DNA of 62,319 nt, the filler included, from Hausera hauseri (lineage: Eukaryota): NCBI GenBank assembly GCA_046269625.1. It is 9 parts of 9 records of this genome, joined end to end, with 100 filler letters (N's around TTAATTAATTAA, not from the genome) between each part and the next. Parts side by side here need not be neighbours in the genome. Positions count along the whole stretch, not along the records: positions 1 to 10,400 come from JBJURY010194414.1; 8 more parts are not named here. One strand, written 5' to 3'. The notes under the pieces were generated by a model, which made no database searches, had not been told where the DNA came from, and worked only from the letters and a program-made list of their open reading frames with translations. A program made the position numbers and the translations under genes. This document shows, in pieces, positions 1 to 50,330 of the stretch (position 1 is its first letter; each line of letters starts with the position of its first letter).

Positions 1-365
1 TTAGAAAATGAAATCATCTCAAGATTGCATAAATTAGAACGCCATTAAATCGTATTGTTCACGTATTCAAGATAAACTTTATGTAACTAAATTGTTTATT
101 GATTTATTGCAGTATGTGAATTTTAAATTTATGGATGGCAAATTTCATTGTAAATTCAAATATTGAGTTTATTTACCAATCAAGATAAATTTCTGTTTTG
201 ATGATAAATTCAGCAGCACCGAAACCGTGAAATAGCAGTTTAATAGTGGACCCTGTTATTTATTAGCATCAGTTGTTACTATTATGTAATATTAAATATG
301 AATCATTTTTCATTTTATTGTAAATTTGTTTATTTAAAGTTGGTACAGTCACAAATTTCCGGAAA

Positions 366-494
366 ATGCCAGCAGAACAGCCACAAAACGTTGAAGAGGA
401 ATACGACGAGGAAGAGGAATTCGATGAAGATGATTTAGAATGCGAAGAAGACCAAGACGACGATGAGGAAGAGGAAGAGGAGGATGATGAGTAA
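366..494 (+). CDS. Small highly acidic ORF (42 aa, MPAEQPQNVEEEYDEEEEFDEDDLECEEDQDDDEEEEEEDDE); a microprotein or the terminal exon of a larger gene
   Basis: ATG at 366, TAA at 492-494; GA-rich coding-like island in AT-rich DNA; acceptor-like ttgtttatttaaag ending at 339 with the frame open to the ATG; AATAAA signals downstream (about 517 and 594). Confidence 0.5.
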   Translation: MPAEQPQNVEEEYDEEEEFDEDDLECEEDQDDDEEEEEEDDE

Positions 495-1041
495 CCGTCT
501 ATAGGATTTTATAGATAATAAATACTTCTGATTCGTTTGTATGTGTACCTCATTAATCTGTATTTTATTTGATTATGTTGAGTAATATATTTTAATAAAA
601 TCTAACCAGCGGTTTTTTATTCATTGAATTCTTGAACTGAAGTTAATAATACAAGTGAAACATTTTATGTGTGTAAAATACGTAGTTATCTTTGTTCCTT
701 ACAACAAATTTAGTGCAACACAAAAAGATTAGTATTATGTAATCGAAACCCATAAAAAGGTTTTCTATTATGCAAAATACTCGTAAAACAGTTGAAATTT
801 AATTTAATAAAAGAAATTAGATTTTCGAAAATAACGAGGCAGTGAAAATATATTTCATTCGAAGAATATCGGAAACGAAACTAAAAATAACCCACATGAA
901 CTTAAATTTACGAAATATTTTCCAAAATCCTTTCCTAGCATGGTCGTATTGTGTAATCGTGTCATTAGTTTAGCATTAGGTAATACTTTCTGAAATGTAT
1001 TTTGTTTCAATTTTAATTTGTTCATTGAAAATCATTGAAAT

Positions 1042-1149
1042 ATGTCATCAAACGCACAAAAGAAATTCGAAATTGAACACGAAAAACAGATTTATGAAGA
1101 TGGCGAAGGACTTTGTAAAGATGAAGTAGACTTTGAAAATGACGAATAA
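1042..1149 (+). CDS. Small acidic ORF (35 aa, MSSNAQKKFEIEHEKQIYEDGEGLCKDEVDFENDE), possible paralog of 366-494
   Basis: ATG at 1042, TAA at 1147-1149, AATAAA just downstream; Cys at nearly the same position and the same DE-stop ending as the upstream ORF. Confidence 0.35.
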   Translation: MSSNAQKKFEIEHEKQIYEDGEGLCKDEVDFENDE

Positions 1150-1588
1150 TCAAATAATTAATAAAGTATTGTGAAATCTATTTAACCTACATTCTACTTG
1201 TATGTGCTTGCTTCGCATTTATGGTTAATTTGAAAGTTGGATCCATTTTTAATTTGCATGTATTAATTTATTTTTATTGATTTTATCAGTGACATCATGC
1301 TAAATTAGTAAATGAGATTGAGGAAATTTTGGAACAGTTTGAAATAACAATTCACGTGCGGGGGATATTGGATTAGTACCGACATCATTGAAAATTAAAT
1401 TTAGGACACAAAATTAGAAGCAGAGATAAACTTCTATCATCGAATATTCGAAAGCAATAATCACAGTTCTACTAACTAAAATAATCGAGTCAGTCGAATT
1501 GTGTAGAAAAAGAAATAATGAAAAGAAATTTTATGTTATTCAACATCCAATCATATGTTGAACTAAATTTAACATCACATTTGTAACA

Positions 1589-3171
1589 TTAATTTGTCAC
1601 AAGCCAAATTTCATTATGTCGATGAGTAAGTTTCCATGGTGAATCATATGTTGCCGTGATGAAGGTTCCCGGTTTGTAGGCATTGGTGTCGTTAATAGCG
1701 TTCTTTAGAATTTCATACTGCTTCAACCAGGAGCTTTTGGACAGCATGTATCCACTAAATGATCTGTAATATAAGAATGAGTAAATCCAAATAAATATGA
1801 CTGATACGGGGTTTGATTTGTTAAAAGTTATACTCGAATATTATCAATAAATGTAAATGAATATACAATTTGAATGATAGAAAATAAAAATAGATTCCCA
1901 AAAAGAATACTCCCTTGATGTAAAACGACTATACTTCATTTGAAATATTGATACTAAACGAATAGCACAGTTCGACGGAAAGATCAAAGGACATACGATT
2001 AGACAGAAAACTCTTGAGCTTTCAAGGTAAAACACGGTTTCGATACAACTCACAAATTCATTGTGCTTATTCACTTTTCCGTTATTTAAGTTTCTTAGCA
2101 TCTTATCGATAATGTTTGAACCATTCTGTGACTGCTCTGTACAAATAAAATATTCCCGTTCTATTAGGGTCGTCGATTAAGTGCGAATTCCTTTTTCGAT
2201 ATTCAGTGGAGCAGTTTCAGTACACTAATGACGAGAAAGGTAGAGAAAACAAGAAAACGCGATGTACGCTTTAAACATGATGTTGATATGAAGAGTAACA
2301 TGTACAATTACCATGCGATTTTGATTGATGGACAGAAAATTCGGAACATCTGGTAATACAGGACAATCAAACAATGATTTAAGGAGTTATCGAATAATAT
2401 GATAACCAAATTCTCAAAATCCATTACATCGGAAGTATGTTAGTCGATATTCGAACTATCACTAAAATATAATCTACAGAAAACATAAAAAGACAAATTG
2501 AAATGCCAAATCAATAATGCATCAATTGAGACCAAAATACATTGCATGCTGTACACGACAGAGTTACAGCATAAAGCATTAACCAACCCAGTACTAATTA
2601 GTCATTTATATTTAAATTTAAAAACGATTTATTTAAACTGCTAATTGAATACCTCACATATATTTTCATTTCACCTTGATTCTCTAAACGTACGCTGCTG
2701 TCTCGAGGTGTTGGCGAATTCCCATTCGGGAGGAAAAATTTCATCGAATAATTTCTCGCATCCGGACAGATTTCCATGAGTATCGGAACACCACTTATGA
2801 TTCCTTCATCTGAATAAATAAAAAGTCGTAGCATTTTTCTTATTTCGAATTCGGCTTACTGTTGGTATTGTACCCATGAGTATATCCCACCAATCGCAAA
2901 TAAAGACTTGGTACAACAAGTGAAAACGGATAACCGACAATTTTTGACGATGCCCAGGACGTGGCGTTCAATTCTCGTATTTCGTAAAGCTTAATTGTGA
3001 AGTTCGTAAGGTACAACCGAATAAAATCGAAAAAAATACTTCTTCCATTTTGACAACTTTGTAATAAGGACAGTGCCAACTTCTACAAAATTTCGGGGGC
3101 CATTTATCACATTGTACAATGGCAACGAGAAGTAAAATTAAACCAAATAGCATTTCGAATACTAAACTCAT
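1589..3171 (-). CDS. Secreted SOUL/heme-binding protein family gene, 4 exons (3171-3040, 2989-2860, 2809-2653, 1763-1589), 197 aa
   Basis: GT-AG introns (50, 50 and 889 nt) join into an uninterrupted frame: signal peptide MLFGLILLLVAIVQC, PKFCRSWHCPYYKVV, YEIREL..W, RLVGY..G.N, MKFFLP..PTPRD..V, YVRSFSGY, YDSPWKLTHRHNEIW, all typical SOUL/HEBP motifs. Confidence 0.9.
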
Positions 3172-3843
3172 TCGTAGACAAAATTTCGTATATATATAGT
3201 ATTCGGTTATCAACATAGATAGTTTCTTTACACGTTTTGCCGGCTTATCATTGTTGTGTGACGTACACTGTGAGTAATCAATATGCTGCTGTAGAAGTAC
3301 TCGATTGATCATAAGGAATTGATATCGATTTTTTGACAACGGTACCTAAACGAGGTGTTAAGATACAGATGCAACTGAACAACTAACAAATCGAAATGTT
3401 ACGCATTGTAATCGATTCAAGCGTATATGTTTAATATGGAGTTAAGTGACCCTGAACATGTGTTTATCTTCTCTCTTTCAATGTTATGCACACATGCTTA
3501 TTAAACAGTGTCAAATTAACGCAATTACAGCTTTCATTTCTTGTTCAATCCTCTCCCAGTGTGCAAAAGAATTTTGAGTTTTGATAACATTTTCATCGTT
3601 TCTTCGAAGTGTTTTACTAATATTCGATTGTTGGTGTTTGTGTTACGTCGATTGAAAAATTATCAGTTGCAGGAGGTACTTTCCCCATACACAGATGGCT
3701 GGCTTTAAATGTGCGTGATTCGTACCATATATGCATATTAGATATAAGATTTGTAGAAATGATTGAAGAAAATTTTATGACGGATGAAAATAATTATGCT
3801 TATTGTAATGGACAGAAATTGTTCCGATTTTGTAAGATAAATC

Positions 3844-4557
3844 TGTTATTGTTTGGGTGGGCCCTATACAATTCCCAATTATAACAAGTTACACTTGAAA
3901 TTGCGAGTTATCTTATGCAAGTCCGGTTTAGCGTTCTCGTCAAACGAATGCGTCTCTTTTACAATGCCTGTAGTGCGTGCGAGTCCTGTGCAAATATTTA
4001 ATTACGTTCTCCTCTTAACTATATAAATTACAATCGAATTTAAGACTTAGTGGATCCTCTAACTACTCTTAAGGAGCAGTGGGGAACTATATAAAACAGT
4101 TTAACAATAAAATATATTGAATAAACAGTTACTAACGGATTATAGTTCACAAAAGAGTCAATCAGATCGGTAAGTTCGATTCGTCCTCAATAACAATATT
4201 GCTTGAAATCAGTATCTTTAGTTAGTCAACGGTCTGTGAATCTGACGCTTTGCTCTATCTACACTCCATCTTCCTCTTTCTCTACTTCTTATTGCGTATT
4301 TATACTACGCATCTAATCTGGTCTTTTTAATTATTTACAATTCTCTAATGTTTCTTCCAATAAAATTCAATAATTTATAATTCTATGTTCATTCTTTACA
4401 ATGGCAAATCCAATTCAGACGCCAATTAACACGAGATAACTAAGTTTTATTGTTTAAACTGGTCAATATTTAATTATATACCGATTTCTACATTACAATT
4501 AGATATTCTAGTCATCATTAACTATTCTTTTCTAGTCCGACTAGCTATTCTATAACA
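3844..4557 (-). repeat. 3' LTR (714 bp)
   Basis: 6-bp terminal inverted repeat tgttat (3844) / ataaca (4552-4557), directly abutting the PPT; TATAAATA on the minus strand at 4297-4304; sequence similarity to the LTR starting at 61788. Confidence 0.85.
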
Positions 4558-4569
4558 TCTCTCCTCCCT
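4558..4569 (-). promoter_or_regulatory. Polypurine tract (AGGGAGGAGAGA), primer for plus-strand synthesis
   Basis: Pure purine run on the minus strand immediately before the TGTTATA LTR start. Confidence 0.85.
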
Positions 4570-4886
4570 GAGCGGCATCCTCAAATGTGCCTATTGCGTC
4601 AGGAAAGGTGACGCTCAAACGAGGTGCTCTTAACTGGTCCAGTCTTTGTTGTAGATCCAGTTCTTGTGAGTTTGGTAAAACTTGATGATAGTGGGCTCGG
4701 TTCTCTATTTGGTAACTAACATAGGGTGGGATTTCCACAATTTTGTTACTTTCGCCTCTAGTGTATTATTTCAACTGACTAGCTTCGGCTCGGCAAACTG
4801 GGCAGCTTTTTGGTTCTTTGGGGTCAGTCTTTTGGTTCCCATTCTAGATCGAAACACCGGTGCCAGATATTTTCCCATATTGGGGT

Positions 4887-6023
4887 TTACATTGGCACAC
4901 GCATTTTCATGAACTTCCATTCGTGATTCCAGTTAAGTGTGGCGTAAATGTCTTTTAGATACTGGGTGCGCCGACTTGCGGATAACAATTTTCTAATTTT
5001 AAAGTGCCTTCCGCACATCGATTTCAACATTAGTTTAAACCTAGCTTCTGGGCCTATTGGTAGGGCACTATTCCTTTCTTGTAATACTGATCCTAGCTGT
5101 TCCGCTACCGTTGGGTGTAGTTCAATGTCTCTCACTCCAACGATATCCGATGGTGGTATGTTTAGTTCTTCGATGGTTTGTTGAACTTGGTATACTGCCA
5201 GGCGGCAACCGTAGACACAGTGGTGAATTTCTGTCTCGACTGCTTTAGCATCTTTCCCTTTTAAGAAATCTGCCCTTTTAATCCCAGTTAAATCGAAAAA
5301 TGTTTCCCTTACCTGTTTTCTCGGGTTTATTATCTTGGAATATATATCTGTTCCAGAGTATTCTCGAATAGAGACTTCGAATGGCATCCCTTACCCATCA
5401 TCACCTTCTCCTCGATTTATGGAGATGATTCGTACATTGCGTCCATCTTGGATTAGTCTAAAAGACTTGAAATTCTGATCTATTTCTTCTTTCTTGGAAT
5501 ATTGTTGATATTTTAAAGTAGGTAACTGCACATAATGTGCTTCTTCATATGTAACCTCGAACATGAGTTTTGTCGGCAATGCCGCTATGCGGAATTCCAA
5601 TTCGTAATTGTATAGAGCTAAGCTGCTTAAATAGAAGGTGCTAAAACGACGTTGTTTCCTTTTGTTGGCATCCAAATTCTGCCTGGTAATGCGACAATAT
5701 AATTCACCTTTAGCTAAGTGGGTATAAATTCCTTGGTGATACACTGGTTCATATTTTATTAGACTTCTTAAGGGATATGCCCGAGCATCTGAATCCTGTC
5801 TCATTGCGTATAAACACATAACCATGTTCTCTTTGATCGTACCCTTCAAGTGGTTGGTGATTTTGTCGGTTTGGCTGAATTCGATGAATGTCTTCTTGTG
5901 TAATTCGGTGTTCATTTGGCGATAAATGGATTTCGATTGCGGTATCAAGACAGTCACGTGTCTATCCAGGAAATCATTGATATCGCATCTTTGAATCTGA
6001 CTATTTTCGGCTTTTGTCGCCAT
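4887..6023 (-). pseudogene. Retrotransposon 3' extra ORF (378 codons, one in-frame TAA at 5391-5393): unknown N-terminal domain plus a REX4/ISG20-like DEDDh exonuclease fold lacking catalytic residues
   Basis: Track ORFs 5391-6080 and 4887-5387 are in the same frame (GGG TAA GGG ATG). The segment GEGDDG*GMPFEVSIREYSGTDIYSKIINP..V....LTGI....F.KG....VETEI....G.RL.....IEEL....VRD aligns almost without gaps to the remembered REX4/ISG20 pattern GVGP.G..S..ARVSIVN..G..VYDKYVKP..V....VSGI....L.QG....VQKEV...LKGRILVGH...DLKVL....IRD. Confidence 0.65.
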
Positions 6024-6039
6024 AGCAGTACTTACACTT

Positions 6040-6055
6040 CTAAAAATGAAAAATT
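6040..6055 (-). promoter_or_regulatory. Candidate splice acceptor for a subgenomic mRNA of the extra ORF
   Basis: Minus strand reads tttttcatttttag|AAGTGTAAGTACTGCTATGGCG, with AG at 6041-6040 and the ATG at 6023. Confidence 0.5.
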
Positions 6056-6199
6056 TAAGATTAATCCTAAAACAAATCATTGTCCTAAAACAGAACCAGT
6101 TTTCTGTTTGATGGTGGAATAACCCGATGTGTAATTGACAGATTATTTCATCATAGGTTTTGACTAGGGGTTCCGTTACTCTTAATTCTCCCTCTTAAT

Positions 6200-6900
6200 T
6201 TTTTGGCGCTTACAATGACGATTTTTGGCAACTAATCAAAAAATCGCAGTTAACATGATGAGAACAAACGTTGATAGTCCGAATATTGATAAGATCAGTT
6301 GGGTTGTTAATCCCGTCGGTTTCTGTGTAGTGATTGAAGTTCTAATCTCATCATCTATGTTTTCGTATAAATGCGGTTCTGAATGAACTTCGTCTAATCT
6401 CGGCTAATCTCTTCCGCGAGAGTTAATCACGTTTTAGCGTCTACGTGGATGCATTGATTTTTCTTATTTATCGAGATCGTTTTGATATTTTCATCTGATA
6501 TTCGTATGTTTGGGTCAGTAGATTGCAATAATTCGTCGAATTTTGTTTTAAATCGCCTATCTATGGTCGGTGTGATTAATTGGAGTTGTGGGTTTACTTC
6601 GGCGTAGATTTCAGATGAATCCAGCAGGTACAGTCGATAAGTGAGGATGTAGGTACGTCCATAGTTTATGTGATAACATTGTGCATAATCGCGGGGTTTG
6701 AAGTCATGGTTGTTCACTTCGTTCCTCGCATTATCATGCAACACTACTTGAAATTTCCAAAAATTGTGGTGTGGTTTTCAAGTTCTGAATCCAACGTACA
6801 TAGTCTCAGGTGTGAAATAGTAGGCATTCATTGATTGTAACAGCTTAGTGCCTTCATGTGGTGCCCGAATTCACCCAATCGGTGATTTGTATATGAAAAA
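6200..6900 (-). pseudogene. Decayed extra ORF of unknown function between integrase and the exonuclease-like ORF
   Basis: Track ORF 6427-6744 extends upstream in frame through two TGA stops (..LLQSMNAYYFTPETMYVGFRT*KPHHNFWKFQVVLHDN..); boundaries approximate. Confidence 0.45.
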
Positions 6901-7068
6901 TTTTATTAAGGCAGGTGTTTAAATATTGGTATTCACGAGAGGTGTAAAAAAAATTGAAATGAAATAAAAAATTATGAACGTTTCATGTTGGTAACAAACT
7001 TATTTTGTATATAAAGAGTTTTCTTCTTTCAGTGGAATTATATTGCCTTATTCTAATCACTTAACGAA

Positions 7069-7532
7069 TTACAATGGTGTTAGTTTACGAGCTGGAATTT
7101 TGAATGATATTCGATCGAATGCTTTAATAATGGGAGTTAGTAAGTCGAACAATTCATCGACAACATTCGATCCAAAGTCTACGACCAATCTTGGTAATTT
7201 CACAGTTAATTCTTTATCAATCGACCAGTCTGTTTCTTGTGGCGATTCATCATTGCGAACTCACGTTCCATCGATTTGTTCAAATGATCTCGATGATGTT
7301 CCATGAAGCAGCAATTCATCCAGTAAAGGAAACAAGGAAACCCACACTTCGTGTTTTGGATTTCTTCAGTCGTTGGTTTCTTTTCTTTTACAATTGCTTT
7401 TTGTTTTAGCCCACTTCTTCGAATTACGTATACGTCTCCTAACGTAATTTCGTCATTTCACAATTGGGTTTGAGTTTTTGGTATACACGAAGCAATTAGC
7501 GACAATGCTAAGACTATCTGCATGTACGACAT
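7069..7532 (-). pseudogene. Post-integrase extension starting with a signal-peptide-like segment (possible env-like remnant)
   Basis: In frame after the integrase GPY/F region: RYYLRQRETKTSSIITRP-MSYMQIVLALSLIASCIPKTQTQL*; coding-like sequence continues with a stop and a frameshift to about 7069. Confidence 0.4.
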
Positions 7533-10400
7533 CGGTCTGGTGATTATTGAAGAAGTTTTCGTCTCCCGTTGTCGTAGATAGTAACGTTTATTCGGTCGTA
7601 TATCTGCCTTGACGACTCTCTGTACTAACATGACTTCTTTTCCATTTTTGTTGATGTAAGCCGTGATCGGCGTAGTTTTGGTAATTTGGCATGGTCCTCG
7701 ACGAGTACGGGTCAGTTTGAATGATGAGCCCTTTTTGGTTATAGGGTAGTGTACGTATACCCAATTTCCTTGTTCTAAATCGTGCGATTTTGCTTTCTTG
7801 TCATATTGCTTTTTAAATTGTTCCCGATATTCCTAGGACAGTTATTTTGCGATCTCCCAACATTTTTGTAATCGTGCTTGTAGTACTTCTGCAAAATTTT
7901 GTTCCAAATCTTCGGGGTTAACCATTCCTAAATCTGTCGGTAAAACGGCTTCTCGTTCATACATCGCAGAAAACGGTGTGAATCCGGTCGCAGGATGAGG
8001 CGCTGTATTGATAGCAAATTGCATGCCTTCTAGAAATTCTTCCGAGTCCTTTTTGGTTTTTGGCAATCACCGTTGACAAAATGCGTTGCATTCATTTGCA
8101 TTTATTCTGCAGTAGTTAATCGTTCGATTACGAATATTTTGGCAATTTTTTCAAATAGTTTGTTCGTGAAGTTTCTTCCTCGATCCGTCAGTATTTGTTC
8201 CGGGGTCCATATAGGCAAATGATTCTCTTCACCACGGTCTCTGCCAATGTTTCGGCCTTTTGATTGATTAGCGCTATTAACTCGACGAAATTAGTTAGGC
8301 GATCAATACAGGTTAAAATATATTTATTATTTTTGTGGGTCATAGGCAGTGGTCCTACGATGTCCATTAGCATGGCGTGCATAGACAGGTCTGGCACATT
8401 AATTGGCTCTAGTTCTGCTATATGGTTCTTCGTCTCCTTCTGCTTATTTGCACATATTTCGCAAGCACTTACCCAATTTTTTTACGTCGACTGGGTCGAA
8501 AATATTTATTCAGTATTCTTTCCAGTATCTTTTTCCGGGACACGTGTCCTGCTAAATATGAGCCTTGTTCTGCCATTAAACTTCGGATCGTAATCCTTTT
8601 GGGATGGTTATCAATTATCGTCCTTTTCTTTCGTAATATAGAATATTTTCATGACCCTTACCATTCAAAACACAATATTTATGTCAGTGTCTCTGTAAGT
8701 GTTTCTTTAGCTGTCGTCCTTTTGGTATTATCTTTTTCGGCAAATTCTATAATCTGCTGAGTGACTATGTTCTTTTTCTGTCCTGTTGAAATTTTGATTG
8801 CTTTATCTAACGTTAATGCGCGTTGGCGATCTACTAATTCTTCAAGCTGAGTCTTCTTCATCATTGTGATTGCACTCGTCTTAGTTTTCAATCTTGATAG
8901 AGTGTCAGCATCTAAATGCTTATTTCCAGGTTTATACTCGAATTCTATGTTGTATCATGGGATTTCTTCAATCCATCGGTTAAGCCTGCATGTTGACTTA
9001 TCTATTCATCCCTTTAAAGTCGTGACAGCCTTATTATCCGTAACAATTATAATTTTCTGTCCAAAAACATTTACGTTGAAATGTCGTAGTGGTTCCTTGA
9101 CGGCTAATGTTTCTAATTCCGTAACGAAATAATTATTCTCGGCTTTCTTTAACGAGCGGCCTCCATAGGCAATGGGTGCTCCAATTCTTCGTCTTCTCGT
9201 TTCTGTGCTAGTTCGTATCCAATACCTTCTTTACTAGCATCTGTCTTAATTATAAATTGCAATTTAAAGTCGGGATATCTTAGAACTGGTTCGCTTGTTA
9301 AGATCATCTTCATTTTGTCGAAAGCTTTCTGTTCGATATTAGTCAATTTCCATTTAATCCCTTTCTTAAGTAGGCGATAGAAGGGTGCATTTATTTTTGA
9401 GTTGTTTGACACAAGTGGCGTAATATACACAAACCTAGCCAGTGCCGTAACGCCTTCTGATTTTGTGCCCTCATGCAGTCTGATATTTTGTTCAACATTG
9501 ATTTAACTGGTTTCGATCCTCGTTCCTCAACTATATGGCCACTTTAGAATACTGCATTTTGAGCTCATTTGCATTTCTTGAAGTTTAATTTTAGTCCTGC
9601 TTGTTCTAATCGCAACAGCATGTGCTTGATATCCTTTAAATATTCCTTTTTTGTTTTGACGGTATTATTACATTATCTAAGTATGCAAAAGCGTGATCTT
9701 GTACTATTAACATTTTATTCATCATTCTTGTAAAAATAGCCAGCCCACTAGTGATACCGAACGGCATAACGTTAAATTCGTAAACGCCATCGTGTGTTTT
9801 GAACGACGTTTTGTAACGGTCTTCGCCATCAATTTCTACTTGCCAATATGCGGATTGTAAGTCCAGCGTGGTAAACCATTTTGCTCCTGAAAGTTTATCT
9901 AGAGCTTTTTTTACTAATAGCAATGGGAAAGAAACCTTCATCATAAGATTATTCAATATTCTGTAATCAATACAAAATCTATGTTTTGTAGTACCTTTTT
10001 TTAACCATAAGGATCGGTGAGTACCAAGATCTATAGCTGGGTCTAATTATGTCTACTCTAAGCATTCGTTCAACTTTCTTTGTTATTCAGGGTCTCAGCG
10101 AGTGAGGTTGATGATACCATTTCGGTATCTTCTGATCTTCAAGATTTATTTCTTCGTTTGAACCAGGCTTTTTCTTAAGCAGAATGGTCAATTTTTGAGC
10201 TTTAACTCTACCAATATCTTCGTCCTCCTTGGCAATAACTGATTTATAACGGTATAACAATTGATAAAAACGATAATAGGATTCAGGCGAGAATTTAGTT
10301 TCAACTTGAGATGGGAATTCAGCATATTTGAAAGGTTTTACTTTGATAGTTACGGATGACACTCTATAAGTATGTCCAAAGGTAGTATGAGAATATAGCT
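7533..10400 (-). pseudogene. pol: Gypsy pol (RT, RNase H, integrase) with many stops and frameshifts
   Basis: RFCIDYR..LNN, FTTLDLQSAYWQV, YEFNVMPFG, AYLDN (mutated YLDD), KTDASKEGIG, MDIVGPLP, CIDRLTNF, TGFTPF, RRGPCQI. Confidence 0.95.
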
Positions 10401-10500
10401 NNNNNNNNNNNNNNNNNNNNNNNNNNNNNNNNNNNNNNNNNNNNTTAATTAATTAANNNNNNNNNNNNNNNNNNNNNNNNNNNNNNNNNNNNNNNNNNNN
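10401..10500. other. Artificial contig linker N44-TTAATTAATTAA-N44
   Basis: Six-frame stop cassette inside Ns; the same linker recurs at 14754-14853, 20361-20460, 24599-24698, 28812-28911, 47006-47105, 51656-51755 and 57210-57309. Confidence 0.98.
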
Positions 10501-11245
10501 TAGATGGAGGCTCGAAGGTGACATCCCTTTTAACTATATGAAAACAAGACGTTGTGACGTATGATTTAAAATTGGAGTCTAGAGACAATAATGAATGAGG
10601 CATATCATTAGAGAGAACAGCTCCAGTGATTGACGAAAAGCAACTGGCATAGATACTGTCGACGCCTAGTTTGGATTTTTGTTTTAGAATAGATTTATGA
10701 ATGCCGTTCATAATTGAAATATTGCCGACTTTATCGGAAGTTTTTTATAGATGACAAGGTGTTTAACATGTTCACAGATGAGTGCAATGAATTGCTCGCT
10801 AAGTTGTCTACGAGACACATGTTTGGAGTTGCAATCGAGTTCCTGCTTGAAAGACAGCTGTATTTGCAATCGACCAATAGATCATGTGCGGCAAGAAAAT
10901 CTGAGCCTATTGTAGGAAATTTAATGTTGGCCACGTGGAACTTCCAGACAAACTTATCTGGCAAGTTGCCGAATGTGAAAGTCAATTCCGTGGTTTCTGC
11001 AACATGCAACGATTGACCACTGGCAGTGAAAATCGGTGGACAGGAAATCATATTCGATTTAGCAACAAAGGACAAGGGAAGGAGCGAAAAAACAGCTCCT
11101 GAGTCTATAAGAAAGTCGATATATGACGCATCTCTGCATGATAGTACAGCTTTTAACAGAAGGACTGCAGAGGCGGTGTTGAAACGGCCAGAAGATTGAG
11201 CAATATTGCATGCGCCAGAATGTGCCGTAAAATCTGGCACAATTA
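10501..11245 (-). pseudogene. pol: CsRN1-like Gypsy aspartic protease and PR-RT spacer
   Basis: DFLIDSGAVFSLLP, TASGQSL, FVWKFHVANIKFPTIGSDFLAAHDLLVDC; the spacer resembles those in the copies at 23008-23565 and 48354-48968. Confidence 0.9.
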
Positions 11246-12287
11246 TTAGTTTGTCGAAGGTTTTGGAGAAAAAGAAGAAGAGGAAGAAAAGCGAGGAGAT
11301 TTATTGTTGTAATGTTTACAACCAGTCACACATGATCTAGCCTGTGACTGGAACTTATTGTTGTAGACACAAATAGGGTTATCCACAGCGTACCGTTCGC
11401 TGTAGAACCGACAACCCAAAAAACATTTCCTAGCATCCGTTAGAAATCGAGTGTGATAGAAGCAAGTCATGCGTCCGCCAGGTGAATTGGATCCAGCAGA
11501 GTGTCTCGAAATGCTTCTCTCCTTTGAAGGCCTGGTTTCACTTCATCGAGGCCCATTAAGATTATTTAGTTGGGTAGTAATGGCCAAAATCGACTGCTAT
11601 AACTCGTCAAATTGTTGGTGCATCATTTGCAATTGTTGTGAAAATAAAGTGTTATCTGTGTGTGATGGTGTGTGAGCGGTTGCTGCAGCTACTGGTTATG
11701 AACTATTAGATTGCAAAATGTCAAAACTTTTGTCTGCCAATAAGGCGAGCTTTTCAAGGGCCGTTGAGTCGTCTACTACAGTGAGCAGCGCTCTAATGGA
11801 GGATGGCAAGGATAAAAAAAATACCGACTAAGAAGATCGGCATTGTTTATAGGAATGACACCTAAGGAACTCAGTTGAGAGATTGCAGTTTTAAGGAAAT
11901 CCGATGGTTTTTGATTTCCTATGGCATGTTCATTGAAGTATTTCTGAATTATGCTGTCAGTGGAAGGGTCGGTAATGTGCAGAACTGATTGATAAAGCAT
12001 ATCACATGGATTTGAAGAGGTTAGTATGTCGGCCAGATTATTGATTTGCTGCTTGATATTAGCTGGAAGTAGTATCAGCAAACTGTTCGCCCACAAGAAG
12101 GAATCTGTGATATGATTGGCTTTAAGCCATTGCAAATGGAATTGTAACCAGGCACGACTTGAATTCGTTTTGTCGAGAAAAAGTCTGTGCAAAGGAGATT
12201 TGCAGATGTAGTTGGTGTGGGGCCTGCGGGACGACGACCATATCTGGTCTTATTAGGTTTTTTTACATAAGAAGGATCGGGGTCCGA
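11246..12287 (-). pseudogene. gag: CsRN1-like gag with two tandem CHCC (C-X2-H-X9-C-X3-C) motifs
   Basis: AWLQF, IGNQKPSDFL, CFYHTRFLTDARKCFLGC and CVYNNKFQSQARSCVTGC. Confidence 0.85.
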
Positions 12288-12494
12288 TACACTCCGTAAG
12301 CGAAAATGAAGTAAGGTGGATAATTATGGAGGAAAATGCAGAAAGTTGGTCATTGACATTAAGTATAGAACCATGATATGAGAGATAAAAGTCTGGTGAG
12401 TTGAGGTGGGAGGATAGATGTGCGTGAAGGTGATGAGGTATACTTGTGGGGCGCATGGAAGGTATGGAGGTGTATTATTAAAGAAGATAAACAA
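12288..12494 (-). pseudogene. Ubiquitin-like domain immediately N-terminal to gag (two frameshifts, one stop)
   Basis: Joined frames give LFIFFNNTPPYLPMRPTSIPHHLHAHLSSHLNSPDFYLSYHGSILNVNDQLSAFPP*LSTLLHFRLRSV, matching the ubiquitin pattern (IFV..., L.F.GK.L.D..TL, STLHLVLRLRGG). Confidence 0.55.
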
Positions 12495-14671
12495 GGGTAA
12501 GGGACGCGGCGCAGCGTGGGCAATCACGCTCAATTGCACACCCAATTCATCGATAGCTCTTTCATTGATAGCTCTGTCTTGATCCGAGCTATCATAGATC
12601 TGAGATGACACATGGCACTCATGTGAAGTACCATCTTTGTTTAGCATTATAAATGAACAAATGCCGATACGTAAATGTGTCGTAATTTAATAAAGGTGAC
12701 TCGGGCAATCCTTCTTGATCTTCATGATTGTTGTATTTGAATGGATCAACAAGTATGTTTGATTTGGTGAATGACTTAGCCACACATATCTCAATCCCCG
12801 TGTCGATATCTGTTTCTTTGAATAAAGCGTACAAAGTTTTATGGGAAAAGAATATATTTGTTGGGATTTCTACAGGTGATAAAATATCAATTACCAAAAT
12901 GCTTTTACAAGAAGCTTTAGTGGAAGACAGAAAGTCGATGACATAAGCTAAAATTCTACGGCGTCCCTTTTGTTTGATTATTGGCAAGGTTTTAAAAAAT
13001 AGATTCTGCAGGAACCATTCGTAATCAGTTTTGTCGTTGAAAAATTGGTCGTCACCAGACGTTGCCGAGAGTGAGTCTCCGACGTCATGAGCGAAAGACA
13101 TAGTGATAATGATAGAATTTTAAAAAATAGAATATTCTTCAAATTTATAAATAGCGCTCGCTTATTTTCAAAATAATCATACATAGTACCTGTATAGATA
13201 TATCCTAAACTGTCTTTGAATCGGGAGATGGAAATCGACGATATACAATTTTTAGTATCATACTTTAAGTTACCAATGCAGTCAAGTAAAACAAAACTGT
13301 TACTGTATGCCTTTTGTAATGTCTGACTACTAAAACTAAGCTTTTGCAGTGTTTCTATGAATCTGCTGACAACGGACGAATGACCACAGTTCGTAGAAAA
13401 TACTTTATAATCATCAGCTGAAACAAATTGTTTCTGAATGGCTTGATGCATTAAACTCGTGAGAACGATCAGTGTTTTGATGTTAACTTGATGGATGGCA
13501 GGTTGATTGGACGGTTTAAATCTTCACAATTTTCTGTAATAATGTCCTAATTAAGTTCTCGCAAAACATGATGGATAAGCAATTTTGTAATGAAAATTTA
13601 AACAAGACCTGTGACACAAGAATTGACGACGCATCACTTTTAATGATATTATGATTGTCATTCATACTTTTATCACTTAGGCGGTGGGTGATGTATTTAA
13701 TTCTCCAAAATATTGATTCTAAGAGCATTTCATCGAATTCCATCATGTGCGACAAACTGTTGAGAAAATTTTGACAATTAAGATACTTTGAAAAATTACG
13801 AAAGAAAATTACCAGTTGCTGCTTATTCAAAATGCTAGTGCATCTACTATGTTTTGTTTCGCGGTTTTGATCAACGAATTTTGGCGACAAAGTGTTAATA
13901 CTCTGCCAATAATTGCGGTTTATGTGTCCGGGAATTGAACTTCGAGACGATCGAGAAACAGCTCCATCGTCGGGTGAATATGAAAGAGAAGATGCATTGA
14001 TTGTAATTATTGACAATGGAGATAGATTTTTAGACACTATGCGAGAATGAGATTCGTCAACATTAGCAGTAGTCATTAACGGCATTGGTAATGAATTTGT
14101 TCTTTTCGGCGACAATGTTTCAACAGGATAATTAATATCAATTAAATTGTTACTTTTATTAACAGAAATAATTGTTGCAGTTTCCTTGTCCTGTCTTTGT
14201 TTTGAAGTAGTAATAAACCTACTCGACCCATTTTGTTTAGTTTGAGACAACGGTTCATAGATAATAAGATAAAAAACTGAACGGATATTTCATCAGTTTT
14301 GGTCAGATGAGATTCACTGGTAATTTGCACCTTAATATTTTCAACCGGCCGATACATTGGTTGCTGATACGACTTCAGCCTCTGTACGACACTTATGTCT
14401 CACTGATTCTGCACTTTGCGATTGTGTTTTCTGAATGCTATGATAAATCCGTCCTTTTTCATAGTCGGATACGATTGTTATGAGATTCTATGTTGATTGT
14501 TTTAGACGACGGTCTAACACTACTGGGCCTGATGTTTGACATACTAAATTTATCATTACTGTGAATATTAGGCAGTGACTTTAATTTGGAGTTAGACCGA
14601 ACAGTGGTTTCATTAATTTCGCATTTGATATCAACGACCATGTTGGTTCTTGACCATTGATGCATGCTCAT
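12495..14671 (-). pseudogene. Long decayed, apparently intronless ORF of unknown function upstream of Ubl-gag
   Basis: Chain of same-strand overlapping or abutting ORFs (14459-14671, 14142-14357, 13516-14250, 12978-13451, 12619-13101, 12324-12647), Ser/Thr-rich at the N-terminus and globular-looking at the C-terminus. Confidence 0.5.
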
Positions 14672-14853
14672 TTGGTAGTTCTTTCAAGTATTAGAATATT
14701 TGTATTCAAATTACAATCAAAAACATTGGTGCCATTTATTGGCCAAATATTATNNNNNNNNNNNNNNNNNNNNNNNNNNNNNNNNNNNNNNNNNNNNTTA
14801 ATTAATTAANNNNNNNNNNNNNNNNNNNNNNNNNNNNNNNNNNNNNNNNNNNN

Positions 14854-17800
14854 TAGCTCATTCCGCTAAGTCCAAATATGCAGGTGTCCGGAACTGGGTC
14901 ACTCTAAAATTTTTCGTCCTAACTCATTCCGCTAAGTCCAAATAATCAGGTGTCCAGGAACTGAGTCATTCTAAATTTTTTCGTCCTAACTCATTTCGCT
15001 ATGTCCAAATAGACAGGTGTGTGGAATTGAGTCAGTCTAAAGTTTTTTTCGACCCAACTCATTCCGCTGAGTCCAAATATGTAGGTGTCCGGCATTGGGT
15101 CTGTCTGAAATTTTTTTCGACCCAACTCATTCCGCTAAGTCCAAATATGCAGGTGTCCAGGAACTGGGTCACTCTAAATTTTTTCGTCTTAACTCATTCC
15201 GCTAAGTCCAAATATACAGGTGTGCGGAATTGTGTCAGTCTAAAATTATTTTCGACACAACTCATTCCGCTGAGTCCAAATATGTAGGTGTCCGGAACTG
15301 TGTCAGTCTAAAATTTTTGTCGACCCAACTCATACCGCTAAGTCGGAATATGCATGTGTCCAGTAAATGGGTCGGGCCACAAATTTTTCGTCCTAGCTCA
15401 TTCCGCTAAGTCCAAATATGCAGGTGTCCGGAACTGGGTCACTCTAAAATTTTTCGTCCTAACTCATTCCCCTATGTCCAAATATGCAGGTGTCCAGGAA
15501 CTGAGTCACTCTAAATTTTTTCGTTCTAACTCATTCCGTTGAGTCCAAATATGTAGGTGTCCAGGAACTGAGTCACTCTAAATTTTTTCGTCTTAACTCA
15601 TTCCGCTGAGTCCAAATATGTAGGTGTCCAGAAACTGAGTCACTCTAAATTTTTTCGTCTTAACTCGTTCCGCTGAGTCCAAATATGTAGGTGTCCGGCA
15701 CTGGGTCAGTCCAAAAGTATTTCGACCCAAATCATTCCGCTAAGACCAAATATGCAGGTGTCCAGGAACTGGGTCACTCTAAATTTTTTCGTCCTAACTC
15801 ATTCCGCTAAGTCCAAATATACAGATGTGCAGAATTGGGTCAGACTAAAATTTTTAGACCCATCTCATTCCGCTGAGTACAAATATGTAGGTGTCCGGAA
15901 ATGGGTCACTCTAAAATTTTTTTCTTCCCAACTCATTCCGCTAAGTCGGAGTATGCATGTGTCCAGTAAAGGAATGAGGCCAAAAATTTTTTCGTCCTAG
16001 CTCATTCCGCTAAGTCCAAATATGCAGGTGTCCGGAACTGTGTCACCCTAAAATTTTTTGCGACCCAACTCACTCCTCTGAGTCCATATATGCAGGTGTC
16101 CGGAACTATGTCAGTCTCAAATTTTTTTCGTCCAAACTCACTCCTCTGAGTCCAAATATGCAAGTGTCCAGAAAATGGGTCACTCTAAATTTTTTCGTCT
16201 TAACTCATTCCGCTGAGTCCAAATATGTGGGTGTCCAGGAACTGAGTCACTCTAAATTTTTTCGTCTTAACTCATTCCGCTAAGTCCAAATATACAGGTG
16301 TGCGGAATTGGGTCAGTCTAAAATTTTTTTCGACCCAACTCATTCCGCTGAGTCCAAATATGTAGGTGTCCGGAACTGGGTCTGTCTGAAATTTTTTTCG
16401 ACCCAACTCATTCCCCTAAGTCCAAATATGTAGGTGTCAGGCACTGGGTCAGTCTAAAATTTTTCGACCCAACTCATTCCGCTAAGTTCGAATATTGAGG
16501 TGTGCAGGAACTGTGTCATCTAAAATTTTTTTTGATTCAAATCACTTCCTTGAGTCCAAATAAGCAGGTGTCCCAAACTGGGTCAGTCTAAAATTTTTCG
16601 AACAAATTCTTTCCGCTGAGTCCAAATATGCAGGTTTCCGGAACTGGGTCAGTCTAAAATTTTTTTCGACCCAACTCATTCCGCTAAGTCGGAATATGCA
16701 TGTGTCCAGTAAATGGGTCGGGCCAAAAATTTTTTCGTCCTAGCTCATTCCGCTAAGTCCAAATATGCAGGTGTCCGGAACTGGGTCACTCTAAATTTTT
16801 CGTTCTAACTCATTCCGCTAAGTCCAAATATGCAGGCGTCCAGGAACTGACTCAGTCTAAATTTTTTCGTCCTAACTCATTTCGCTAAGTCCAAATATAC
16901 AGGTGTGTGGAATTGGGTCAGTCTAAAGTTTTTTTCGTCCCAACTCATTCCTCTGAGTCCAAATATGTAGGCGTCCGGAACTGGGTCTGTCTGAAATTTT
17001 TTTCGACCCAACTCATTCCGCTAAGTCCAAATATGCAGGTGTCCGGAACTGGGTCACTCTAAAAATTTTTTCTACCAAACTCACTCCTCTGAGTCTAAAT
17101 ATGCAGGTCTCCAGGAACTGGGTCACTCTAAATTTTTTCGTCTTAACTCATTTCGCTGAGTCCAAATATACAGATGTGCAGAATTGGGTCAGTCTAAAAT
17201 TTTTAGACCCAACTCATTTTGCTGAGTCCAAATATGCATGTGTCGAGGAACTGGGCTGCTCTAAATTTTTTCGCCCCAACTCATTGCCCTAAATCCAAAT
17301 CTGCAGGTGTCCGTAACTGGGTCTCTCTGAAATTTTTTTCGGCCCAACTCATTCCGCTGAGTCCAAATATGCATGTGTCGAGGAACTGGGCCGCTCTAAA
17401 TTTTTTCGCCCCAACTCATTGCCCTACATCCAAATCTGCAGGTGTCCGTAACTGGGTCTGTCAGAAATTTTTTCGACCCAAGTCATTCCGATAAATCCAA
17501 ATTAGCAGGTGTCCAGGAACTGGGTCAGTCTAAAATTTTTTTCGAGCCAACTCATTCCGCTAAGTCCAAATATACAGGTGTCCAGAAATGGATCAGTCCA
17601 AAAATTTTTTTCGTCCCAACTCATTCCCCTAAGTTTAAATATGTAGGTGTCCGACACTGTGTCAAACCAAAAGTAATTGGACCCAAATCATTCCGCTAAG
17701 ACAAAATATGCAGGTGTCCAGGAACTGGGTCACTCTAAATTTTTTCGTCCTAATTAATTCCGATATGTCCAAATATACAGGTGTGCGGAATTGTGACAGT

Positions 17801-22534: not shown

Positions 22535-23565
22535 GGAAGATTAAACGTAAGTGCTCGGAGTGTTGTTTTGAGGAAGATGATGTAATTAGGATATCATCGA
22601 TATAGGGATAAGCAAAGTCTAAACCTGAGAGGACTGTATTAATATGCCTTTCGAAGGTTTGGGAAGCGCTACGGAGTCCAAAAGACATGAAAAGGTATTC
22701 GAAAAGGCCAAAATGTGTAATGGCAGCTTTTTTCGGAATGTCTGCTAGGGCCACCGGGATGTGGTGGTATGCTTTGTGCAAATCAATGCAGGAAAAATGG
22801 TCGAACTATGGAATCTGTGAAGGATATCGTTGATTAATGGTAGAGCGTAGGTATCCCTTATTGTTATGACGTTTAGTTAGCGATAATCACCGCATTGGCA
22901 AAAGGTACCATCTTTTTTGAAACCACATGCAGTGGTGAAGACCACGGGGATTTGGATCTTCTGATTATTCCTGATTTTTCCAGTTAGAGAAACTCAGCCT
23001 CCACTGCCTATCTGCGGCGAGGCGATAGCGGGCGGACCTTTTTCCGTATTTGTCTTTGATATGCTGTTACTATGTGATGGAAAGTGGATTTAGGTGGTAC
23101 GAAAGATTTGTCCTTTTGCAACAGACGTGTGCAGGAAGACGAAATATATTGCTGTAGGTCAGAGGGCAACGATGAAAAGTTTTCAGATGTTGTCGATGCA
23201 TCCTGACTGCATGCAGTTGAGGTATGAGTTGTAGACGAGGTGTTGTGGCTAAATGGTATTACGTGCAGGATGTTCGTGTCAAAGATGGTTTTGGTAGCTG
23301 TACTATCAGTAATAGGTGCCACGCAGTTGGCAGTATCGTATTTTTTGCCGTAATAAAAATTTCTACATAATGAACGATTATAAAAGTAAGTCAAATCGGA
23401 GGTCGTTTTCTTTAGTATTGATTTGCTAAAAACGATCGCCCAAGTAGTCACCGAAATGCTGCTAATTTGATTAAAGTTATTTCCGCTGCTTAAGAAACAT
23501 CGTTTGCAGTTTACAAGTAAATTATAGTGGGACAGAAAGTCTGAACCCAATATAGGTATGGTGCC
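22532..23565 (-). mobile_element. pol: CsRN1-like Gypsy pol fragment (end of protease, spacer, RT up to YIDD)
   Basis: PILGSDFLSHYNLLVNC, HHIVT, SKSPWSSPLHVV, CGDYR, FGLFEYLFMSFGL, PYIDDILI. Confidence 0.9.
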
Positions 23566-37900: not shown

Positions 37901-40900
37901 TCGATCGTTCGTTCGATCGTTCCTTCCTTTGTTCGTTCGATCGTTCATTACTTCGTTCTTTCGTTCAATCATTCCTTCGTTCGTGCGTTCACTCTATTTT
38001 TCGTTCTTACGTTCGTTTGGTCGTTCGTCCATTTGTCCGTTCGTTCGGTCGTTCTTTCGTTCTTTCTTTCGTTCATTCGTTTGTTCTTGCGTTTTTTCGC
38101 TCCTTTGTCGTTTTTTCGTTCGGTCGTTCTTTCCTTCGTTCTTTCGTTCGGTCGTTTCTTGGTTTGTTCGTTCGTTCGCTCGTTCTTTCTTTCGATTATT
38201 CGTTTTTTAGCTCGTTCCTTTAATCGTTCGTTCCTTTGTTCCTTCGATTCTTCGTTCCTTCGTTCGCTCGTTCCTTCCTTCCTTCGTCCTTTCTTTCGTT
38301 CGTTCCTTCGTTCATTCTTACATTGCTTCTTTCATTCGGTCGTTTGTTCTTTCGTTCTTTCATTCGTTCTTTCTCTCTTTATTTCGTTCATTCGTTCGTT
38401 CATTCGTCCCTTTGGTCGTTCGTTCGTTCTTTCTTTCGTTCATTCCTTCTTTCGTTCGTTCCATCTTTCCTTCGTTCGTTCCTTCGTTCGTTCGTTCGTT
38501 TCATCTTTCGTTCGTTCCTTCGTTCGTTATTTCGTTCGTACGTTTGTTCATTCTTTCATTCTTTCGTTCTTTAGTTTGTTCGTTCTTTCGTTCCTTCTTT
38601 TGTTCTTTCGTTCTTTCTTTCGTATGTTTATTCGTTCGTTTGTTCTTTCGTTCTTTTTTTCTTTCTTTCCTTCGTTCTTTTTTTTAATCATTCGTTTGTT
38701 CATTCATTCTTTTATTCGATTATTCGTTCTTTCGTGCGTTCCTTTATTCGTTTTTTTTGTGCGTTCGTTCGATTGTTTATTCTTTCGTTTGTTCTCTCGT
38801 TCGTTCGTTCGTTCCTTCGTTCGTTCCATCGTTCGTTTATATGCTGGTTCGTTCCTTTGTTTGGTCTTTCGTTCGGTCCTTCATTCCTTCGTTCGTTCGT
38901 TTGTTCTTTTGTTCTTTCGCTCGTTCCTTCAATTGTTCGTTCCTTTGTTCCTTCGATTGTTCGTTCCTTCGTTCGTTCGTTCGTTCCTTCCTTCCTCCTT
39001 TCGTTCGTTCGTTCCTTCGTTCATTCCTACATTCCTTCTTTCATTCGGTCGTTTGCTCCTTCGTTCGTTCGTTCGTTCTTTTGTTCGTTCTTTCGTTCGT
39101 CCGTTCTTTCTTTATTTCTTTCGTTCGATCATTCGTTCGTTTTTTCGTCCGATTATTCGCTCGTTCGTGAGTTCTTTGGTTCTTTTATTCGTTCGTGTTT
39201 TCGTTCGTTCGTTCTTTCGCTCGTTCCTTCGATCGTTCGTTCCTTTGTTTATTCGATCGATCGTGCCTTCGTTTTTACGTTCCTTTGTTCGTTTGTTTAT
39301 TCGTAGGTTTGTTTATTCTTTTATTCTTTCCTTCTTTCGTTCGTTCGTTCTTTCGGTTTTTCTTTCGTTCCATCGTTCGTTCTTTCGTTCGTTTATTCGT
39401 TCTTTCCTTCGTTCGTTCGTTCTTTCGTTTATTCGTTCCTTCGCTCGTTCCTTCGTTCTTTCGTTCTTTCGTTCATTCGTTCCTTCGCTCGTTCCTTCGT
39501 TCCTTCTTCTGTCTAATCGTTCTCTCGTTCGGTCTTTCGTTCGATGGTTCGTTCTTTCTTTCGTTCGATCATTCGTTCGTTCGGGCGTTTGTTCTTTCGT
39601 TTGTTCGTTCATTCCTTCTTTTGTTCGTTTTTTCTTTCCTTCGTTCGTTCCTTCGTTCGTTCTTTCGTTCCTTCCTTCCTTCGTTCCTTCCTTCGTTCGT
39701 TTGTTCGTTCGTATGTTTGTTCGTTCTTTCATTCTTTCGTTCTTTCGTTCGTTCGTTCTTTCGTTCCTTCTTTCGTTTATTCGTTCGTTTCTGCGTTCCT
39801 TCTTTCGTTCGTTCATTTGTTCTTTCGTTCTTTTTTTCGATTATTCGTTCGGTCGTGCGTTCGTTCCCTCGTTCTTTCGTGCGTTCGTTCGTTCCTTTTT
39901 TGTTTTTCCGTTCATTCGTTCGTTCGTTCTTTCGTTCCTTCGTTCTTTCGTTCGTTTGTACCTTTGTTCGTTCGTTCTTTTGTTCTATTATTCCTTCGTT
40001 CGTGCGTTCCTTAATTCGCTCGTTCGTGCGTTCGTTCGTTCGTTCATTCGTTCGTTTGTTCGCTCGTTCGTTCGTTCCTGCGTCTGTCTAATCGTTCGTT
40101 CGTTTGTTCGTTCGTTCGTACTTTCGTTTGTTTGTTCCTTCGTTCGTTTGTTCGTTCGTACGTTTGTTTGTTCTTTCATTCTTTCGTTCTTTCTTTCGTT
40201 CGTTCTTTCGTTCCTTCTTTACTTTATTCGTTCGTTCCTGCGTTCCTTCTTTCGTTCGTTCATTTGTTCTTTCGTTCGTTCTTTCGATTATTCGTTCGGT
40301 CGTGCGTTCGTTCCCTCGTTCGTTTGTGCGTTCGTTCGTTCCTTCTTCGTTCTTTCGTTCGTTCGATTATTTGTTTTTTCGTGCGTTCCTTTATTCGTTT
40401 CTTCGTGCGTTCGTTCGATCGTTTATTCTTTCCTTTGTTCTCTCGTTCTTTCGTTTGTTCCTTCGTTCGTTCCATCGTTCGTTTATACGCTGGTTCGTTC
40501 CTTTGTTTGGTCTTTCGTTCGGTCCTTCCTTCCTCCTTTTGTTCGTTCGTTCCTTCGTTCATTCCTACATTCCTTCTTTCATTCGGTCGTTTGCTCCTTC
40601 GTTCGTTCGTTCGTTCTTTTGTTCGTTCTTTCGTTCGTCCGTTCTTTCTTTATTTCTTTCGTTCGATCATTCGTTCGTTTTTTCGTTCGATTATTCGCTC
40701 GTTCGTGAGTTCTTTGGTTCTTTTTTTCGTTCGTGTTTTCGTTCGTTCGTTCTTCCGCTCGTTCCTTCGATCGTTCGTTCCTTTGTTTATTTGATCGATC
40801 GTGCCTTCGTTCCTTCGTTCCTTCGTTTGTTTGTTCTTTCGTTCATTCATTCCTTCGCTCGTTTTTTCGTTCCTTCTTCTGTCTAATCGTTCTCTCGTTC

Positions 40901-46900: not shown

Positions 46901-47005
46901 TTCGTTCCTTCGTTCATTCCTACATTCCTTCTTTCATTCGGTCGTTTGTTTATTCATGCGTTCGTTTGTTCGTTCGTTCGTTCATTCGTCCCTTCGGTCG
47001 TTCGT
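28912..47005. repeat. About 18 kb of degenerate (TTCG)n/(CGAA)n microsatellite-derived satellite with embedded longer motifs; internal N gap at 29947-30089
   Basis: Continuous TTCG/TTCT/TTCC/TTTG/TTCA tetramers with an A-poor plus strand. Confidence 0.98.
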
Positions 47006-47105
47006 NNNNNNNNNNNNNNNNNNNNNNNNNNNNNNNNNNNNNNNNNNNNTTAATTAATTAANNNNNNNNNNNNNNNNNNNNNNNNNNNNNNNNNNNNNNN
47101 NNNNN

Positions 47106-50100: not shown

Positions 50101-50330
50101 TCCGTGGAAGGTTCCGTGATCTTGAGGACTGCGTTAGAAAGTTGGGAATATGGGTCTGGAAGTTCAAAGATTTCGATGATGTTTGTGGTGCCCACATTGG
50201 CCCATTTAAGAAAAATAACTATTGAATTAGCAAATAAAATCATTTGTAAAGTTATCATAAATCTATTTAAGTTAAAAATAAATAAGTGCCGTAATTGCAG
50301 ATTTTAAGATACACGCCAATCTGGTGTTGT
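47106..50330 (-). mobile_element. CsRN1-like Gypsy element (gag, PR, RT, RNase H, start of integrase), decayed
   Basis: gag IGTQRPSEFL, KLADR; two CHCC motifs CYCHSRLNTNAQKCCLGC and CIYHARFKNRARKCIPGC; PR DFLINTGA; RT RLCGDYRQLN, PYIDDIL; RNase H YSTFDRELWAI; integrase HSLHHPG. Confidence 0.93.
49368..49409 (-). promoter_or_regulatory. gag-pol -1 ribosomal frameshift signal (A AAA AAC plus a downstream stem-loop)
   Basis: gag ends CAA AAA AAC TAA; the protease ORF is in the -1 frame; a GCCAGA...TCTGGC stem follows and is conserved in the copy at 11211-11241. Confidence 0.8.

Follow-up and report, generated by a model that had tools for sequence, protein, structure and literature searches.

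Organization of the element in the window

The window analyzed here is a stretch of 62,319 nucleotides from the Hausera hauseri assembly GCA_046269625.1, in which parts of nine records are joined by eight 100-nt breaks (two runs of N around a 12-nt spacer, at 10401, 14754, 20361, 24599, 28812, 47006, 51656 and 57210). The minus strand of its first part carries remnants of a Ty3/gypsy retrotransposon. The reverse transcriptase–RNase H–integrase order of this group is present, and Pfam and PDB matches identify the reverse transcriptase as Ty3-like. A broken fragment of the pol reverse transcriptase is located at 9636–10046 (RVT_1, E 6e-21; top PDB match Ty3 reverse transcriptase, E 7e-22). It is followed by fragments of an RNase H-like domain at 9149–9502 (RT_RNaseH_2, E 3e-15) and of the integrase core at 8188–8481 (rve, E 8.5e-5, which fails the curated cut-off of Pfam). 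At the 3′ side, a polypurine tract of 12 purines (4558–4569) adjoins a candidate 3′ LTR of 714 bp (3844–4557), which starts with TGT at 4557 and whose ends are inverted at seven of eight positions, the far end being a predicted boundary. No second LTR is found in the window, where the 5′ part of the element is cut off at the break 10401–10500. Beyond this break, a gag-protease-like fragment (10730–12250, minus strand) appears by eye to belong to a different Gypsy-type element; its best Pfam match has an E-value of 0.07.

Three-frame translation revealed broken coding frames over about 1.35 kb (6182–7532, minus strand), env-like by their layout, that separate the integrase from the accessory frame described below. 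They have a short hydrophobic start at 7532, then a transmembrane segment at 6313–6240 and then a basic tail; the hydropathy reaches 2.43 in the transmembrane segment and stays below the threshold in the stretch at 7532. The frames gave no Pfam match, and one of the three, searched against the PDB, gave nothing better than E 0.34. The env proteins of errantiviruses are described, in the accessible part of PMC13524379, as being of the F or gB type with a signal peptide, an ectodomain and a transmembrane anchor. In the window a transmembrane segment occurs in the upstream frame 7532–6182, which lacks a homology match, whereas hydropathy analysis found none in the accessory ORF itself. Judging from the layout, the region 7532–6182 is likely to be the env slot and the accessory gene a further ORF. 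The initial annotation had put the accessory ORF where env would be; since a separate env-like membrane frame lies upstream, the gene appears to be an addition to env and not its replacement.

The accessory frame extends from 6023 to 4887 on the minus strand. As had been annotated, it lies between the Ty3/gypsy integrase and the polypurine tract with the LTR, and it comprises 378 codons with a single in-frame stop, a TAA at 5393–5391. The chance of encountering at most one stop in 378 codons at the local composition is 7e-11. The candidate splice acceptor noted earlier is also present in the sequence: a T-rich tract (6040–6057) is closed by an AG at 6041–6040, 16 nt upstream of the ATG. An acceptor filter, devised after the site had been seen, returned this site alone on the minus strand of positions 1–14700 and no site on the plus strand. 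The acceptor at 6040 would thus be a candidate for the production of a spliced subgenomic RNA. A donor-like hexamer, GTAAGT, is located at 6035–6030 (minus strand), 4 nt past the candidate acceptor; it may be fortuitous, belong to a micro-exon or mark a recursive site. The region 6210–6030 was also examined for a special RNA structure, which was rejected (z −0.94).

Contig depth was inspected in sequencing run X1, which may be the source sample. This depth, which does not equal copy number and is taken as a hint only, was 17–90 in bins over 4729–5963, 9 in the flank and 775–27936 over pol. The stop is covered by one contig, which differs from the window in a single letter. Very high depth was observed at about 6100–6200 and 4560–4620, with loose contig ends at 6105 (seven contigs) and 4618 (five contigs). 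Related elements seem to share these flanks, with other or more diverged sequence between them. In run X2, listed as another organism, a low-depth contig covers 5475–5727 with 3 of 253 letters differing, and possibly represents carry-over. Elsewhere in the window, retroelement-like fragments can be recognized by eye at 23008–23592, 47267–50303 (minus strand), 50667–51221 (plus strand) and 60000–60914 (minus strand). Short repeats of the TTCG/TTCT type fill positions 28860–47050, an array of about 18 kb in which the AT skew is extreme. From about 14900 onwards, repeating peptide patterns in ORFs of the region 14946–16000 suggest a satellite with a longer unit.

Relatives and extent of the accessory gene

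The frame was translated through its stop, with X at the stop position, to give the protein P0001. A phmmer search with P0001 among 1.84 billion representative sequences yielded two matches, P0002 (E 5e-88) and P0003 (E 1e-65). P0002 is an unbroken protein of 870 aa and P0003 comprises 333 aa; each is a single-member cluster from one ENA contig (16 kb and 12 kb, respectively). P0001 is about 41% identical to these relatives, with a range of 41–56% in the N-terminal and nuclease-like halves alike, and the window frame aligns to residues 49–419 of P0002 with 42% identity. The reading frame is open at the position of the P0001 stop in both relatives. A word-based protein search gave no match with P0001, P0002 alone with the alignment, and nothing among shorter proteins with the DEDDh-like domain. 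Its run with the alignment missed P0003 and is therefore not exhaustive. Locus scans for the DNA of P0002 and its relatives found no locus. Two phage records obtained by tblastn were at chance level and were discarded.

Comparison of P0002 with the window by tblastn revealed three collinear matches in three different frames. Residues 5–418 of P0002 correspond to 6083–4914, residues 632–662 to an out-of-frame fragment at 4822–4914 (48% identity, E 2e-5) and residues 786–870 to a second one at 4550–4807 (aligned part 4807–4553, 38% identity, E 8e-8). These fragments score 37.7 and 47.8 bits, respectively, compared with a maximum of 23.5 bits in 40 shuffles. The last one contains one stop; it holds the final CxxC of a RING finger together with the C-terminal tail and runs into the first bases of the LTR. 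The final six residues of P0002 are identical to the window residues encoded across the purine tract and the LTR start. The frame 6023–4887 is thus only the 5′ part of the gene, which continues for about 450 residues to the RING and the LTR edge. About 210 codons are missing before the 632–662 match in the window copy, and about 120 before the 786–870 match. P0002 is presumably the product of the same gene in a related element, and both stretches would have been lost from the window copy. This copy is unable to make the full protein. It had previously been regarded as a near-intact gene with one lesion, a view that has to be abandoned, as the gene is broken by two large deletions, accompanied by frameshifts, and by a further stop. 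A nested insertion is unlikely as the origin of the gene, because the coding sequence of its tail passes through the purine tract of the element itself. The nef gene of HIV likewise overlaps the polypurine tract and the LTR edge.

The 5′ end of the gene is less obvious. A Phe-rich stretch lies 5′ of the conserved part in P0002 (13–20) and in P0003 (16–23), and the acceptor tract of the window, when read in frame, likewise gives such a stretch. The Met nearest to the window ATG is residue 55 in P0002 and residue 68 in P0003, neither at the position of that ATG; therefore the start may differ or may come from an upstream exon.

The domains of P0002 give an idea of the intact product. The N-terminal domain (window 5463–6023, minus strand) is conserved in P0001, P0002 and P0003 (42–53% identity) and has no Pfam match or usable Atlas match; ATP synthase gamma entries at E 0.7–1.6 were taken as chance. 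It is followed by the DEDDh-like domain (4908–5462), which contains the TAA stop. A basic KKRRK stretch is found at residue 547 of P0002. Ahead of the RING, residues 605–735 look like a globular domain with no assigned family; 31 residues of this domain are left in the window. A second DEDDh-like unit within 420–745 was rejected (scores below 0). The RING is located at 747–790 (zf-C3HC4, E 2.6e-7, passing the Pfam cut-off) and contains all eight C3HC4 zinc ligands in RING spacing, of which only the last two are left in the window; P0002 matched no B-box family in Pfam. The complete RING is known from this one protein. The intact protein would comprise about 820–870 aa: an N-terminal domain, a dead DEDDh-like domain, a basic low-complexity linker, a second domain, the RING and a tail.

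The DEDDh-like domain and its catalytic positions

Assignment of the nuclease-like half was not possible with P0001 alone, which had no match in Pfam, PDB, NCBIfam or PHROGs. When a profile of the three sequences was compared with the PDB, DEDDh proteins were the top four of five matches (the top four of eight in a similar run). The best of these was DnaQ 8h18 (E 1.7e-4 to 1.8e-4), followed by PolC 2p1j (E 0.031–0.037), SDN1 (E 0.16–0.33) and ISG20L2 (E 0.27–0.37). P0002 alone matched 8h18 in the PDB (E 8e-4), phrog_192 in PHROGs (E 1.1e-4) and PolC/epsilon/dnaQ models in NCBIfam (E 0.004–0.011). In the Atlas, a result obtained with the relatives and not with the window's own sequence, 19 of 30 matches carry RNase_T with a top score of 0.92, and the top RNase_T clusters are eukaryotic. 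The first Atlas match has 167 features in common, just below the 170 typical within a family, and the second is a cluster of arenavirus nucleoproteins.

A bacterial reference set was used as a further comparison. Among 301 bacterial genomes, 3 gave a match to our own profile, located on the same stretch. Of the 14 DEDDh proteins collected for the reference set, the two found through our own profile were removed and 12 were used. An HMM built from the 12 scored 14.1 bits on P0002, 5.6 bits on P0001 and 6.4 bits on P0003; a score as high was reached in none of 200 shuffles for the first two and in one of 200 for P0003. Alignment with hhalign gave a score of 30.3 (E 4.7e-4), compared with 14.6 for the reversed profile; none of 60 column shuffles exceeded 20.0. 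Its probability was 33% (5% in global mode), and it spanned 165 columns with low confidence over ExoIII. The HMMER matches are confined to ExoI–ExoII.

A kinship with the DEDDh/RNase T family, as proposed in the initial annotation, is borne out by these profile matches (1e-4 to 1e-3) and not by structure prediction. Both AlphaFold models are of low confidence (pLDDT 29.1 and 34.0), and Foldseek found nothing at E ≤ 0.001 with them. The RNase_T family of Pfam was not matched by P0001, P0002 or P0003. It is very improbable, in our opinion, that the resemblance to DEDDh proteins is only partial or spurious, or that the RING is limited to the lineage of P0002, so that the window would contain an accessory ORF of another kind. 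The weak E-values, the low-confidence folds, the missing Pfam match and the mere two relatives speak for this possibility; however, searches of several libraries all point to DEDDh for one stretch of 80–100 residues, and in the window the final CxxC of the RING and the tail are still collinear with P0002. The profile searches thus support a DEDDh fold, and homology of the ExoI–ExoII half is supported at modest E-values of 1e-4 to 1e-3. The first half of the domain is very probably of DEDDh origin, an assignment that we make with less confidence for the ExoIII part. As to the subfamily, the REX4/ISG20 label given earlier is possible. ISG20L2 (E 0.27) aligns without a gap over 73 columns; DnaQ scores better (E 1.7e-4) with an alignment that needs two gaps. 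The scores favour DnaQ/PolC, and the gap pattern fits ISG20L2.

Catalytic positions were mapped on D12, E14, D103, H162 and D167 of E. coli epsilon, which were checked in its sequence. The two acidic positions of the ExoI D-x-E motif are occupied by S201 and N203 in P0001 and by A and N in P0002 and P0003, so all three proteins lack both. A register shifted by two gives N/G in P0001, N/G in P0002 and N/A in P0003, without an acidic pair. The ExoII Asp is replaced by T283 in P0001 and by M330 in P0002; P0003 ends before this position. At the H-x4-D motif of ExoIII, where the alignment is of low confidence, L347/R352 are found in P0001 and L395/C400 in P0002. The earlier statement that the catalytic positions are replaced therefore also holds on the epsilon mapping (S/N, T, L and R in P0001), and the relatives do not restore the canonical D-x-E, D and H-D residues.

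The initial annotation had argued from a single nonsense lesion that the residues were not lost by decay after insertion. This argument fails, because at least two deletions and two stops are present in this gene. The loss is nevertheless older than the decay of the window copy, because relatives at about 41% identity share it as far as each reaches; post-insertion decay was rejected as its cause for the same reason. The conclusion that the active family encoded a pseudonuclease with a DEDDh fold is thus supported, now by the two relatives that lack the same residues. We regard it as quite improbable that the domain is still a nuclease with a non-canonical site. Eleven D/E/H positions are common to P0001 and P0002, including E253 just after ExoI, E349/H351 and H415/E416; the ExoIII alignment is of low confidence, and Maelstrom, reported to cut RNA without the DEDD residues, offers a precedent. 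On the other hand, some common D/E/H residues are expected anyway at 41% identity, neither register places an acidic residue at the two canonical positions of ExoI, and Met or Thr stands in for the Asp of ExoII.

Proposed function and comparison with known systems

We propose, as the interpretation somewhat favoured on balance, that the window contains what two deletions have left of an additional 3′ gene of a Ty3/gypsy element. The intact relative of this gene product combines a dead DEDDh-like domain with a RING and is likely to act as a nucleic-acid-binding adaptor that ubiquitinates host proteins. A dead DEDDh-like domain plus a RING is probably the anatomy of the family. In an intact element, the gene would be expressed from a spliced 3′ mRNA by means of the acceptor at 6040. 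Like PXL and Exuperantia (PMC13659232), the dead domain might bind RNA or cDNA, and the RING, as a putative E3, might ubiquitinate host proteins brought near. The targets could be host silencing or RNA-decay proteins on the RNA of the element. Retroviral accessory proteins likewise destroy host factors. Such a counter-defence ligase mechanism is put forward tentatively, as possible rather than probable.

Alternatively, the same protein may serve the element's own RNA, as a Rev- or CERV-like factor for the export, stability or packaging of unspliced transcripts; the RING would then serve in interaction or turnover. The basic KKRRK stretch of P0002 would fit this explanation, which we consider unlikely; the complete C3HC4 RING points instead to E3 activity, which is not described for CERV in the accessible part of PMC10309623, and no sequence link to CERV came up in the searches made. 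A more far-reaching form of the ligase hypothesis, doubtful as a whole, would assume an env-bearing Ty3/gypsy lineage with a fourth, spliced gene over the polypurine tract. Its product, in which a RING ligase is joined to a dead DEDDh domain, would act as a PML-like counterpart on the RNA or cDNA of the element, or as a mimic of a host nuclease, and would destroy host silencing or decay factors.

LTR retrotransposons are known to carry accessory genes, but a mechanism is available for few of these. A ubiquitin ligase encoded by the element itself, with a pseudonuclease as its targeting module, would, if confirmed, be a direct and testable route to counter host silencing, and the host factors restricting the element could be identified from its substrates. 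It would also add one more independent example of a DEDDh fold that has come to serve in binding. With P0002 as an intact natural protein, nuclease, binding and ligase assays are possible without the broken copy.

In the openly accessible literature on LTR retrotransposons, surveyed mainly by title and opening of the abstract, no dead DEDDh domain fused to a RING was found; Repbase, Dfam or supplements might annotate one, notably the element tables of PMC13524379. Among host proteins, PML-1 resembles P0002 in having a RING together with a catalytically dead DEDDh-type domain: as far as described in the available part of PMC13659232, its PXL domain has the DEDDh fold without the catalytic residues and binds nucleic acid. 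PML and Exuperantia are, however, host proteins; the RING of PML is N-terminal within an RBCC, and the same part of that source describes an EXO-SAM arrangement (PMC13659232). Neither PML-1 nor Exuperantia is among the PDB matches listed, and the likeness is by analogy only.

Closer in context are accessory domains carried by transposable elements themselves. CERV of the C. elegans element Cer1 is a pseudo-GTPase, for which splicing and function are demonstrated in the consulted portion of PMC10309623, whereas the window family would encode a pseudonuclease. The Gypsy-like Burro elements of planarians resemble the P0002 family in carrying ubiquitination-linked domains, namely AIR1 with a RING Zn finger, MATH/TRAF and BIR; these are mainly located in a giant polyprotein, and a dead exonuclease is not described in the accessible text (PMC6431247). 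KolobokD of invertebrates carries a DEDDh (DnaQ) accessory domain. In contrast to the window family, it is a DNA transposon, its domain is proposed to be an active nuclease, and no RING appears in the available part of the text (PMC9587614). The Juno and Vesta LTR retrotransposons of bdelloid rotifers, likewise of Ty3/gypsy type, are similar to the window element in that they carry an additional 3′ ORF derived from the DEDD superfamily. According to the part of PMC5408684 consulted, their ORF3 is an RNase D-like DEDDy protein with intact invariant residues that takes the place of env, and a RING is not mentioned there. In the window family, by contrast, the domain is DEDDh-like, its canonical residues are lost, a RING is present in P0002, and an env-like frame lies upstream in addition.
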